A DNA stretch of 61,380 nt from Thermoanaerobaculia bacterium (GTDB lineage Bacteria; Acidobacteriota; Thermoanaerobaculia; Multivoradales; SZUA-115): assembly GCA_044869955.1 (NCBI GenBank), contig JBIOYC010000076.1, forward strand, positions 1 to 61,380. Direction: 5' to 3'. This document shows, piece after piece, positions 56,253 to 59,894 of the stretch. The notes beneath the pieces are model-generated. The model did not search any database, was not told the DNA's origin, and saw only the letters and a program-made list of their open reading frames with translations. Made by a program: the position numbers and the translations under genes. Numbering within the stretch: position 1 is the stretch's first letter; each line of letters starts with the position of its first letter.

Positions 56253-57881
56253 ATGAACGTCACGGGACGAACCGCCCTGGTTCTGGGTGGCGCCGGTCTG
56301 GTCGGTGTCGCCGTCGTACGCGAGCTGCTCCAGCGCAAAGCGCGGGAGATCCGAATCCACAGCCTGAGACGAGACGAGACCGAGGCCGCGCTGGCGGAGC
56401 TGGCCGGAGCGGCCGGCGAGACCCGTCTCTCCGGTTCCTGGGGGGATGTCTTCGGCTTGGTCGAGGAAGCCTCGAGACGACGGCAGATCGCCGCGCAGCT
56501 GGCCCCGCTCACGACCGAGGACCTTCCTCGCTTCCGCCTCTACGCGTTGCTCTCCGAGGTCCGGCCCGACCTGGTGGTCGACTGCATCAACACCGCCACC
56601 GGCATCGCCTACCGGGATGCCTTTCGCGCCGCCTCGAGCGTCTTCGGTGAGCTCGAGGCGGGACAGATCTCCGAGGAAAGCGCCGAGAGCCTGCTCGAGG
56701 CCCTCTACATCCCGCGCCTGATCCGACACGTCCAGGTGCTCTACCGGGGCATGACCGACGCCGAGACTCGCGTCTACGTGAAGGTGGGCACCAGCGGTAC
56801 CGGAGGCATGGGCCTCAACATCCCCTACACCCACTCCGAGGAACGCCCCAGCCGGGTCCTGCTCGCCAAGAGCGCCGTGGCCGGGGCGCAGTCGATGCTG
56901 CTCTTTCTCATGGCCCGCACCCCGGGCGCGCCCATCATCAAGGAGATCAAGCCGGCGGCGGCGATCGCCTGGAAGCGCATCGACCATGGCCCGATCGCCC
57001 GCCGGGGCGAGCCCATCCACCGGGTGAGAGCTCGGCCCCTGCCCCTGCCCGACCGCTTCTCGAGCCTGGACGCCGCGGCCGCCGAAGTGCGTGAGGAGGT
57101 GCTCGAGTCGGTGTTCATCGACACCGGCGAGAACGGCATCTTCAGCCTCGAAGAGTTCGCGGCCCTGACCACCGCCGAACAGATGGAGTTTGTGACGCCG
57201 GAGGAGATCGCCCAGTACATGCTGTTCGAGATCGAGGGTGGCAACACCGGCCACGACGTCATCAACGCGCTCGACAACGCCGTGCTCGGACCCACCTACC
57301 GCGCCGGCCTGCTCCGCCACTGGGCCCTCGAGCGGATGAGCGAGCTCGAGCGGACCCACGGCACCCGCAGTGTCGCCTTCGAGATGCTCGGCCCGCCCCG
57401 CCTGTCCAAGCTGCTCTTCGAAGCCCACCTCCTGCGCGAGACGTTCGGCACGATGAACTCGGTGATCGCCGCCGGTGCGGAGGAGGTCTGTCGCCAGCTC
57501 AATCAGAAGGTGCTCTCGGAGCCCGAGCTGGCCAACGACGTGGTGGCGGTGGGCGTCCCGATCCTGCTCGCCGACGGCCGGCTCCTGCGCGGGACGAAGG
57601 TGCTGGTCCCCTCGGAGGCCGAGGGGGAGCCAGTGACCCAGGCCAAGCTCGAGTCCTGGGTACACGACGGCTGGGTGGATCTGCGCAGCGCCAATTGTGC
57701 CCGTTGGGTCGCGCGGCTGGTGACCATCCTCGAGGAGGTGGATCGCATCCCGCCGGGAGATACCTCGAGCCGGTTCCTGCGTACCCGCCAGTTCTGGCAG
57801 GAAGGGGGGTCCATCCAGCCCGGCAAGGTGGTCGGCTGGATCCTGGCAATCGAGGAGCGGGGAGGCCGGATCAAGCGCTGA
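56253..57881 (+). CDS. Uncharacterised Rossmann-fold (SDR-like N-terminus) protein, 542 aa
   Basis: [12 protein letters not shown]; VVDCINTAT; [21 protein letters not shown]; good codon usage. Confidence 0.75.
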
Positions 57882-57928
57882 TCCCCGACCACTGTTCATC
57901 TCTCTCCGGGGAGTGCATAATAACCACC

Positions 57929-58159
57929 ATGTTCGCTGCCAAGCTGTCCAACCATCGTCAGCCGCTGCTTCTCGTCGACCGCCTGCGGCCCCAGGTCAGC
58001 GAGGTCTTCACTCGCCACCAGGTGCCCGAGCACGACGCCGAGCGAATCGTCCAGGAGCTGGTGATCGCCCTGCTCTACAAGTGGGACGGCATCACCAACC
58101 ATGAGCACTGGCTCCTGAGGACCCTCGAGCAGAAGTGCTTGCGGCTGTACGGCGCCTGA
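57929..58159 (+). CDS. 76-aa protein resembling ECF sigma factor region 2 only
   Basis: LRPQV...VPEHDAERIVQELVIALLYKWDGITNHEHWLLRTLEQKC matches the ECF DAEDxxQE...WL pattern; no region 4. Confidence 0.6.
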   Translation: MFAAKLSNHRQPLLLVDRLRPQVSEVFTRHQVPEHDAERIVQELVIALLYKWDGITNHEHWLLRTLEQKCLRLYGA

Positions 58160-58277: not shown

Positions 58278-59072
58278 CTAATGTCTACGTAGTAGCTCTT
58301 GCAGGTTCTGCTGGAGCCAGCTCTCGGCTCGGCTGAAGAGCTCGAAGCGTCGCTCCGCCTCGCGGAACTCTGGAGGGTGCAAGCGGCGCCGGCCCCTGCC
58401 CTCGACCGGCGGGGGCAGCGCTGCATGCAGTAACTCGTGGTAGATGACCGCCTCCACCACGTACCGGGGCACGCTGGGATGGTCCATGGCGCGGTGGATG
58501 CGCACCACGTTGGTGGCGTAGCAGTAGCTGCCCAAGCGGATCGACGTCCGCTTGCGAGGCCTCCCGCCTCTGCTGGCTGTGGCCTGGCCCCAGCCGATGT
58601 CGACGGTGAGCCGACCGGCGAAGTAGCGCTGGTTGACCGCGTCCCGGAGCGCAGCGAGGTCGAAGTTGCGACCGACCGGATCGAGAGCCCGGGGAGGCTG
58701 CGCCACCTTGCTGCCCTGCTTCTTCTCCGCGGAGCTTTCCTTGAAGTAGCGCCGGATCACCTCGAGGCAGGAGCGCCTCTCCCGGCCGCGGCCGAGCACC
58801 CATCGAGCCAGGGCGCGCAGGACCTCCTCGGGGGCACGCAAGAACGAGCGGTCGAGCCGCAGCGCCAAGTCCGCCGAGCCGCCCTCGAGGGGCCGCACCG
58901 AGACGATCCGCTGCCGGTTGTCGGTCAGGGTCAGGGCCACCGTTCGGCCGCGCAACAGGGATCCGAGGCGGCGGGCGAGACCGTCCTCGTTGGCGGACTT
59001 GCCCAGGTCCGGGGCGGCCGGCAGGTCCTCCGTGAAGAGATCTAACTGAGCAGAGTCGGAACCACGCTTCAT
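58278..59072 (-). CDS. SprT-like zinc metalloprotease with an N-terminal QLDLF motif
   Basis: VNQRYFAGRL...IGW, RLGSY, YHELLH, RLHPPEF; start MKRGSDSAQLDLF. Confidence 0.75.
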   Translation of the reverse strand: MKRGSDSAQLDLFTEDLPAAPDLGKSANEDGLARRLGSLLRGRTVALTLTDNRQRIVSVRPLEGGSADLALRLDRSFLRAPEEVLRALARWVLGRGRERRSCLEVIRRYFKESSAEKKQGSKVAQPPRALDPVGRNFDLAALRDAVNQRYFAGRLTVDIGWGQATASRGGRPRKRTSIRLGSYCYATNVVRIHRAMDHPSVPRYVVEAVIYHELLHAALPPPVEGRGRRRLHPPEFREAERRFELFSRAESWLQQNLQELLRRH

Positions 59073-59118
59073 GGTGCTCGGCCCATTCTGCCAGAGGGCG
59101 ACCGCTTCCGAGAAGGTC

Positions 59119-59134
59119 TGGCACCCTCCTTGCT
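59119..59134 (+). promoter_or_regulatory. sigma54 -24/-12 promoter of the beta-barrel gene
   Basis: TGGCAC-CCTCC-TTGCT, an exact consensus match 52 nt upstream of the ATG. Confidence 0.8.
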
Positions 59135-59186
59135 CGATGCCCCGTCGACGGCAAACGAGCCGCATGCGAGTGGAGGAGACACGACG

Positions 59187-59894
59187 ATGAGACTTCCAAC
59201 CCTGGCAGCTGCCGCTGCACTTGTCTTGATGGTCGCCGGCCTTCCGGCCACGGCCCAGTCCCGCAGGTCCTTCTCCTATGACAATTCCCTCCGCATCTCC
59301 GCGGGTGTCTTCGAGCCCGAGGGAGACTCCGAGTACTGGGAGGACGCCGAGCTGGACTTCGCGGGCGAAGCCAGTGACTTCGAGGACCTCACTCTCTCGA
59401 TCGACTACGTCCGTGAGCTGCGCGGGAACCTCCGCCTGGTGGTCGGCGGGTCGATCTACGAAGGCTCCGACACCCTGGCCTACCGCGACTTCGTCGACAC
59501 CAACGACGACCCGATCGTGCACGACACCACCCTGACCATCGCCGCGGCCACCCTCGGCCTCGAATTCCGGCTGGCTCCCCGCACCTCACCCGTGGTGCCC
59601 TATCTGGGTGCCGGGGCGGGCCTCTACTCCTGGAGCCTGGAAGAATCCGGGGACTTCGTGGACTTCGGCGTGACGCCGCTCGAGATCTTCTCGGCGGACT
59701 TCGACGACGATGGCGTCACCGCCGGCTATTGGCTCGCCGCCGGGCTCGACGTGCCGGTGAGCTCCTCGCTCACCTTTTTCGCCCGTGGCCGCTGGCACTT
59801 CGCGGAGGACGACCTCGAGGGCGACTTCGAGGATCTGGGCGAGCTGGACCTGTCCGGCCAGGAGATTGCCGCAGGGCTCTCCTGGAGCTTCTGA
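59187..59894 (+). CDS. Small outer-membrane beta-barrel protein
   Basis: GGAGG RBS; signal peptide; PYLGAGAG; C-terminal GLSWSF beta-signal. Confidence 0.85.
   Translation: MRLPTLAAAAALVLMVAGLPATAQSRRSFSYDNSLRISAGVFEPEGDSEYWEDAELDFAGEASDFEDLTLSIDYVRELRGNLRLVVGGSIYEGSDTLAYRDFVDTNDDPIVHDTTLTIAAATLGLEFRLAPRTSPVVPYLGAGAGLYSWSLEESGDFVDFGVTPLEIFSADFDDDGVTAGYWLAAGLDVPVSSSLTFFARGRWHFAEDDLEGDFEDLGELDLSGQEIAAGLSWSF

Follow-up and report, generated by a model that had tools for sequence, protein, structure and literature searches.

A possible clamp-tethered SprT-like zinc metalloprotease in Thermoanaerobaculia and other bacteria

The window analysed here, a stretch of 61,380 nucleotides from a Thermoanaerobaculia bacterium (Acidobacteriota; positions 1 to 61,380 of contig JBIOYC010000076.1, assembly GCA_044869955.1), carries on its reverse strand a gene for a 264-residue SprT-like zinc metalloprotease. 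Close to its N-terminus the protein bears the pentapeptide QLDLF, which has the form of the motifs by which bacterial proteins bind the sliding clamp (beta clamp), DnaN. The reading that we favour, tentatively, is of a strongly basic, cytoplasmic SprT/SPRTN-type metalloprotease which, tethered to the clamp, cleaves proteins blocking the DNA. The clamp tether is well supported in silico, by conservation of the motif and by modelling with DnaN. That the protein binds the clamp, contacts DNA through its basic loops and acts as a protease on the proposed substrate is inferred from sequence and models, and a role in the repair of DNA-protein crosslinks is conjectural.

In the proposed mechanism, QLDLF, carried on a floppy acidic tail, would plug into the hydrophobic cleft of DnaN that also receives polymerases and repair proteins. 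Because the clamp has two such clefts, the protease could share a ring with a polymerase and would ride alongside it. Clamps loaded on DNA mark primer ends and newly replicated DNA, and the tether would keep the basic, two-lobed body close to primer-template junctions and in the wake of forks. This body, a probable dead copy of the zincin fold plus an active HExxH...H lobe, would cleave proteins trapped on, or covalently crosslinked to, the DNA, so that replication or repair may proceed. The parallel is eukaryotic SPRTN with its PIP (PCNA-interacting peptide) box, which binds the clamp PCNA. The features of the gene and protein are as follows:

58278..59072, reverse strand: whole gene for the 264-residue SprT-like zinc metalloprotease (P0001), from the list of open reading frames (ORFs) and the translation; includes the stop codon
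59034..59048, reverse strand: QLDLF, residues 9-13, candidate beta-clamp-binding motif, from the translation, family logo, enrichment and docking model
58995..59072, reverse strand: disordered acidic N-terminal tail bearing QLDLF, residues 1-26, from low pLDDT (predicted local distance difference test) and lack of secondary structure
58698..58994, reverse strand: N-terminal lobe, residues 27-125, from the AlphaFold2 model; a helix, three strands and helices, with an LTLTDNR...LRLDRSF...AP block
58281..58685, reverse strand: catalytic lobe of SprT metalloprotease type, residues 130-264, from the family profile and fold matches
58425..58439, reverse strand: HELLH, residues 212-216, two putative zinc ligands and the catalytic Glu; invariant in the alignment and aligned to HEMIH of SPRTN
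58365..58379, reverse strand: H232-PPEF, putative third zinc ligand and the 'H..EF' block of SprT; aligned to HGPEF of SPRTN
58536..58586, reverse strand: basic loop of the catalytic lobe, residues 163-179, containing RPRKR; candidate DNA contact
59073..59183, no strand assigned: divergent intergenic region between the protease gene and an outer-membrane beta-barrel gene; presumed promoter region

A preliminary description of this DNA, made from the letters alone, had proposed a clamp-recruited protease of DNA-protein crosslinks. It named conservation of the motif in orthologous N-termini and complex modelling with DnaN as checks, and saw a start codon downstream of the motif, or a YgjP-like nucleotide hydrolase, as outcomes that would overturn the proposal. 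The sequence elements on which it relied are all found in the translation: QLDLF at 59034-59048 (residues 9-13), the HELLH...H and H..EF blocks, the N..YF...L...W block (N147..Y150 F151..L155..W161), and the basic patches RPRKR (residues 171-175) and GRGRRR (residues 225-230). It had also seen no signal peptide, and the N-terminus is indeed acidic and has no hydrophobic, signal-like stretch. The N-terminus that it took to be disordered has a mean pLDDT of 56 over residues 1-20 in the AlphaFold2 model; by blocks the means are 56, 56 and 68 for residues 1-10, 11-20 and 21-30, with no secondary structure. The tail (residues 1-26) has three Lys and Arg and five Asp and Glu, a predicted isoelectric point (pI) of 4.4, and lies undocked from the body in the full-length model.

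A lone QL[x]LF is unremarkable: six-frame translation of the genome yields 16,908 open segments of 150 or more amino acids, and these hold 25 occurrences. In homologues, the motif was counted as the pentamer Q[LMFIV]x[LF]F or its hexamer form. Of 259 family proteins fetched, 216 were kept in which the first conserved block was recognisable and preceded by at least 25 residues; left out were 24 whose N-termini were shorter and 19 that lacked the anchor block. The motif lies ahead of the first conserved block in 148 of the 216 (104 pentamers and 44 hexamers). When these N-termini were shuffled 200 times, the mean number of carriers was 3.2 and the maximum 9, and beyond the N-termini the motif occurs in 5 of the 216 proteins. 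Among 80 genomic loci collected using a 25-row alignment, 62 have an in-frame motif with an upstream start codon. The family logo reads P(-2) x Q L [E>D>S] L F. In homologues, between 17 and 194 residues (median 55) of low-complexity sequence separate the motif from the first conserved block of the N-terminal lobe, and a linker so variable in length fits what is expected of a short linear motif. Q9 is invariant in the 110-row alignment (A1), which is not independent evidence since the rows were chosen largely from motif carriers. Conservation in orthologous N-termini, the check named beforehand, is thus borne out.

The position of the start codon is also constrained by comparison. The protease ORF is nested in a longer open frame (58278..59522, reverse strand), within which the ATG at 59072 gives 264 amino acids. 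In the 85%-identical locus L045, this ATG and the 25 bases preceding it are conserved, and a 69-bp insertion or deletion distinguishes the two loci just upstream of the ATG, within 59073..59183, which argues that the region upstream is non-coding. Nine of the first 26 residues differ between the two proteins, yet the Q, L, L and F of the motif are kept, and the codon for Leu10 differs by two synonymous changes (TTA/CTC). On these grounds of sequence comparison, the gene starts upstream of QLDLF, and the motif is translated and under selection. The concern that the true start might lie downstream of QLDLF is answered by this comparison, together with the upstream start codons at 62 of the 80 loci.

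QLDLF fits the canonical clamp motif, Q-aliphatic-x-[L/M]-[F/L] or the hexamer form, as defined in a 2024 review of the beta clamp (PMC11139829). QLDLF is described there as the strongest binding peptide, and Hda as a clamp client with an N-terminal motif (PMC11139829). The same genome holds other proteins with motifs of this form, their identities confirmed with Pfam. A family-B DNA polymerase ends in RQLTLFG and a DinB-type polymerase in PQLALFP. A UvrD-like helicase of about 1024 amino acids (L085, contig C157:1653-4724) has the terminus ...KARQLSLF, and an ImuB-like Y-family protein (L088, contig C89:21-1598) has an internal QLTLFGP in its C-terminal half. By its sequence the UvrD-like protein looks like a clamp-bound helicase; a separate observation is that an N-terminal extension of about 390 residues precedes its helicase domain. 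The IMS domain (residues 12-157) is the sole recognised domain of the ImuB-like protein.

The complex was modelled from the organism's own DnaN, encoded beside dnaA on another contig (C60; locus L001:1501-2610) and aligned with 50 relatives, and from protease residues 1-45, both supplied as alignments. The model scores 0.64, 0.65 and 0.60 against 0.01 for the best of three controls, although these scores may reflect memory of solved clamp-peptide complexes; the control in which DnaN was swapped for an unrelated protein scored 0.00. In calibration, 116 of 157 solved complexes and 2 of 215 mismatched pairs attained the mark, counts that hold only roughly here since our own alignments were used as input. 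Agreement between the runs extends to at least 82% of contacts. The pLDDT of the partner is at least 47, and at such low values its own fold in the complex is uncertain, as expected of a peptide. The modelled contacts involve protease residues 7-13 and 17 and sixteen residues of DnaN (171, 173-176, 244, 249, 282, 322, 346, 348, 364 and 366-369). By BLASTP to E. coli DnaN, fourteen of these sixteen correspond to T172, G174, H175, R176, L177, P242, V247, N320, V344, V360, M362, P363, M364 and R365, and all fourteen are listed for subsites I and II of the binding pocket (PMC11139829). The two contacts outside the pocket list of that source are 282 and 348 (equivalent to S346). The check by complex modelling thus placed the motif, in the model, in the canonical cleft (0.64 against 0.01), with the same proviso as to solved complexes.

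QLxLF could also be conserved for a reason that has nothing to do with the clamp, for instance as an autoinhibitory peptide in the cleft of the protease itself (like the tails of minigluzincin zymogens), as a docking site for another partner or as a degradation signal. The cleft of a protease could accommodate a hydrophobic LxLF peptide, and the entry titles of the nearest solved folds, projannalysin and proabylysin, describe them as zymogens. Distant members of the family commonly have hexamer variants such as QLEFxF/W, whose F at the fourth position falls outside the canonical definition (PMC11139829). We nevertheless consider this alternative improbable. The tail is undocked in the full-length AlphaFold2 model (pLDDT about 56), the unrelated protein in place of DnaN scored 0.00, and the pentamer is the exact clamp consensus, including an invariant Gln with a known role in subsite II of the clamp (PMC11139829).

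The enzymatic part of the favoured reading, a clamp-tethered SprT/SPRTN-type protease, can be assessed from the catalytic lobe. The AlphaFold2 model of the protein has a mean pLDDT of 88.7 and divides it into the tail (1-26), an N-terminal lobe (27-125) and a C-terminal lobe (130-264). In the 110-sequence alignment H212, E213, H216 and H232 are invariant and F236 nearly so. The Pfam SprT-like family, PF10263, matches 99 of the 110 aligned members at E <= 0.01 (best 3e-11), and the ESM Atlas annotation is 'SprT-like'; no NCBIfam model matches this protein. The family profile matches the SprT domain of human SPRTN (6mdx) with E 7.6e-4 over positions 140-240, setting HELLH...HPPEF opposite HEMIH...HGPEF of SPRTN. 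In structural comparison by VIA-align, the top matches of the C-terminal lobe are selecase (Z 12.1), jannalysin (11.7) and abylysin (10.9), with about 100 residues aligned at a root-mean-square deviation (rmsd) of 2.4. SPRTN (6mdx) follows with Z 10.4, rmsd 2.8 over 100 residues and 25% identity, the highest among the top matches. Wss1 (Z 6.6-6.8), PprI (Z 4.7) and ArdC (Z 4.2) are weaker matches. Foldseek found nothing in the PDB at E <= 0.001; its best hits were jannalysin (5e-3) and SPRTN (9e-3).

These comparisons also bear on whether the enzyme might be a YgjP-like or other non-protease metal hydrolase. PF01863 (YgjP-like) finds weak matches in 5 of the 110 members (best E 1.6e-4). It has no match to this protein even at E up to 1, and since 99 of 110 members are SprT-like, and both the profile and the fold lead to SPRTN and the minigluzincin peptidases, the hydrolase alternative is the most remote of those considered. 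On sequence and model, the catalytic lobe is SprT/SPRTN-like and not YgjP-like, as the preliminary description had supposed. The protein is the only member of its family in the genome; the other two genes that match PF10263 weakly encode an M48-like membrane peptidase and an unrelated protein of large size. No fusion of the SprT-like family was found among longer proteins, which is weak evidence; nine long family members are SprT-like only, except that in one a response-regulator domain is also seen, probably through a run-on gene call.

The N-terminal lobe is confidently modelled, and when folded alone from a 19-row alignment reaches a pLDDT of 82.6. Compared with 48,161 chains, it is closest to abylysin (Z 5.2), selecase (5.1) and jannalysin (4.5), all weak matches below the trusted level. 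The same three minigluzincins head the match lists of both lobes. Profile-profile comparison of the two lobes with hhalign lines up equivalent elements, not significantly (E 0.11). The N-terminal lobe is possibly, to judge from these models, a degenerate copy of the zincin fold that has no HExxH.

The body of the protein is strongly basic. The pI of the N-terminal lobe is 11.3 and that of the whole protein 10.9 (net charge +18), close to the family medians of 11.3 and +21. The basic loop of the catalytic lobe lies between strands, and in the 110 members has a median length of 16.5 residues with a median of 7 Lys and Arg (range 3-12). Affinity for nucleic acids through Arg-rich loops and high pI is plausible from sequence.

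A DNA-binding N-terminal domain followed by a C-terminal zincin would recall ArdC, a protein of mobile elements that has been likened to Spartan (PMC7213743). An ArdC-type conflict protein, combining a DNA-binding domain with a Wss1/SprT-like protease for anti-restriction or defence, is a very unlikely identity for this protein. ArdC is among the fold matches (Z 4.2), but the fold search shows no match of the N-terminal lobe to the ArdC N-domain. The gene is single-copy, lies among housekeeping genes and keeps its synteny in relatives, and PADLOC reports only AbiEi, with E 0.011.

A more serious alternative, though still unlikely in our estimation, keeps the tether and changes the substrate. 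The enzyme would be a regulatory protease that acts as a switch, cutting one or a few specific clients (translesion polymerases, for example, or a stalled replicase), the clamp itself or its loader, and would not clear crosslinked proteins indiscriminately. All the evidence for the tether applies to it equally, and the several other QLxLF clients in the genome would share the ring. SPRTN was first tied to the control of translesion synthesis (PMC7782752), and the related zincins IrrE/PprI are regulatory proteases triggered by DNA damage, although the fold match to PprI is weak (Z 4.7). Against it, no specific partner gene is conserved alongside, and the basicity of the whole body (pI about 11) suits general association with DNA better than recognition of a single protein.

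Several observations weigh against a clamp-tethered protease that clears blocked DNA. The docking result may show only likeness to a clamp-binding motif, since the site is a textbook one and clamp-peptide complexes are abundant among solved structures. The protein itself scores below the PF10263 cut-off (E 0.0013, 19 bits against 25.6). No counterpart of the zinc-binding subdomain of SPRTN that contacts single-stranded DNA (ssDNA) is found, nor a zinc ribbon: the chain ends 32 residues past the third His and has only two cysteines, C102 and C184, and the alignment to SPRTN ends at the protease subdomain. The PIP box of SPRTN is reported to be dispensable for its recruitment to forks (PMC7782752), so by that parallel a clamp motif need not define function. 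No conserved repair-gene neighbours were found among the 80 related loci or in the neighbourhood within the window, and the commonest neighbour elsewhere, directly upstream on the same strand, is a hydrolase of the metallo-beta-lactamase (MBL) fold (Lactamase_B_2, E 2e-44). The SOS-box-like motif of Acidobacteria, GTTCN7GTTC, has 25 matches against 35.8 expected, and none in the promoter region.

The distribution is a further point on the same side. The family profile is matched (E <= 1e-10) in 102 of 301 sampled genomes of the phylum, a patchy occurrence in a count that includes the unpublished genomes G150 and G049. Many of these matches span only the C-terminal two thirds, and many belong to sister subfamilies that lack the motif. 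The 18 motif-less loci among the 80 comprise 8 labelled Myxococcota, Deltaproteobacteria or Proteobacteria, 3 labelled Nitrospirota and 5 labelled Acidobacteriota, and 2 that are cut by contig ends. QLxLF is also missing from most relatives labelled Myxococcota or Proteobacteria and was not found in any of 20 more distant acidobacterial homologues taken from the matches in the phylum, which confines the clamp motif to one subfamily.

The part of the earlier proposal of a clamp-recruited crosslink protease that is supported in silico is the recruitment: the motif is conserved and docks in the DnaN model. The crosslink role finds no such backing, given the lack of repair neighbours, of an SOS-box-like site and of the SPRTN zinc subdomain. 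A more specific version, in which some bacteria (Acidobacteriota, Hydrogenedentota and some Nitrospirota) have a replication-coupled crosslink protease made of a SprT zincin, an independently acquired DnaN hook and a dead lobe that gates the active lobe as an internal pseudo-dimer, is conceivable but doubtful.

The motif-bearing subfamily comprises Acidobacteriota, Hydrogenedentota, some Nitrospirota and a few Myxococcota. The closest homologues come from metagenome-assembled genomes labelled Thermoanaerobaculia (Acidobacteriota), the nearest being 85% identical. There are 171 close homologue clusters; an exhaustive profile-free search gave 2705 at E <= 0.001 and 1666 at E <= 1e-10, and by the latter count the family is large. 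Most of the 20 distant acidobacterial homologues carry a different N-terminal part of the form FYPYxGxNxTIRLR. In a sister subfamily of Acidobacteriota (L090-L109), the LTDNR-type N-terminal lobe is replaced by an FYPYxGxNxTIRLRxG...SDLL block, and the near-motifs QLSLPS (L097) and QTSLF (L104) occur in the sister subfamily. Some relatives without QLxLF (P0229, P0230, P0235, L062, L066 and L070; the label is Myxococcota for L062 and L066, Proteobacteria for L070) have another conserved N-terminal peptide, [RP]-L-P-[LF]-G/S-P-A-x-R-x-[RQ]-Q, which may be a diverged clamp motif or some other docking peptide. P0095-P0121 and L053 have the N-terminal signature AAVRIP...PQIF[IV]HEGARQALERRL in place of the clamp motif. 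The stretch itself is matched by four soil DNA runs, with no RNA run listed among its matches, and the host is described as a soil acidobacterium.

The genes around the protease gene are pckA, a 542-amino-acid ORF, a 76-amino-acid ORF resembling sigma region 2, a divergent outer-membrane barrel, a MarR gene and a gene for an ankyrin protein, a neighbourhood common only to the two closest loci. No sigma-70-like promoter consensus was found in 59073..59183. Clustering of the neighbours placed the MBL-fold hydrolase in 40 of the 80 loci, and an adjacent pair was seen in 33, with gaps mostly of a few to about 90 bases (examples among L002-L059, e.g. L029:4933-5739, forward strand). A homologue 46% identical to it is encoded in the genome studied here, on a different contig (C71:6260-7006). 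The hydrolase is a possible functional partner of the SprT-like protease.

Two of the neighbouring ORFs deserve description in their own right. The 542-amino-acid ORF (window 56253-57881, forward strand) adjoins pckA, begins with a Rossmann-like GGAGLVG and matches no Pfam family at E <= 0.001. Its counterparts in L045 and L022 are 90% and 67% identical. The 76-amino-acid ORF (window 57929-58159, forward strand) is convergent with the protease gene and resembles sigma-70 region 2 only, at E 7.5e-4, under the cut-off. The open frame that holds it (window 57695-58159, 154 amino acids) has 90% identity to L045 across 106 residues, and to judge from sequence the 76-amino-acid ORF may encode a sigma-like protein that is truncated or minimal.

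The removal of the protein part of DNA-protein crosslinks in bacteria is poorly understood, and work so far points to general proteases, nucleotide excision and recombination. Literature searches, made outside subscription journals and partly on titles and the beginnings of abstracts, found no description of a bacterial clamp-linked SprT or DNA-protein-crosslink protease, in keeping with the earlier remark that none was known to be described. Neither 'protease' nor 'peptidase' occurs in the 2024 clamp review, and the list of beta-clamp partners is there considered to be probably incomplete (PMC11139829). If the proposed function is correct, the protein would be a directly testable candidate for a dedicated bacterial crosslink protease, it would show that the SPRTN-PCNA arrangement evolved convergently in a second domain of life, and it would add a new class of enzyme, its first protease, to the beta-clamp interactome.

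The arrangement of a SprT protease with a sliding-clamp motif is itself known, in SPRTN; what is new is a bacterial form with a different architecture. The two share the HExxH, the third His and the 'H-x-P-E-F' block of the metalloprotease subdomain (fold Z 10.4, 25% identity), and in each a disordered region carries a short clamp-binding peptide: SPRTN has a PIP box for PCNA (PMC7782752), the present protein QLDLF, predicted to bind DnaN. They differ in that the bacterial protein has no zinc-binding ssDNA subdomain, SHP or UBZ, has an extra N-terminal lobe, and carries its clamp motif at the N-terminus, whereas that of SPRTN is C-terminal. With a different architecture, and a clamp partner unrelated in sequence to PCNA, the link to the clamp would have been acquired independently, and the protein is not an orthologue of SPRTN.

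Members of the Pfam SprT-like family PF10263, which include E. coli SprT, share the N..YF...L...W and HExxH...H..EF blocks with the present protein, which differs in its score below the cut-off and in its missing zinc ribbon; E. coli SprT has such a ribbon at its C-terminus. The minigluzincins (selecase 4qhf, projannalysin 4jix and proabylysin 4jiu) are the best fold matches of the catalytic lobe and the best, though weak, matches of the N-terminal lobe. These archaeal proteins of about 110 residues stand alone, are 12-16% identical and have neither a clamp motif nor a second lobe, in contrast to the 264 residues and two lobes found here, and the sequence profile ties the present family to SPRTN instead. 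With established clamp clients the protein shares a motif in a disordered terminus, N-terminal as in Hda (PMC11139829) and not C-terminal as in Pol II and Pol IV, and, in the model, the same binding pocket. It would differ from them in kind, the known clients being polymerases, ligase-type or repair factors, and regulators.

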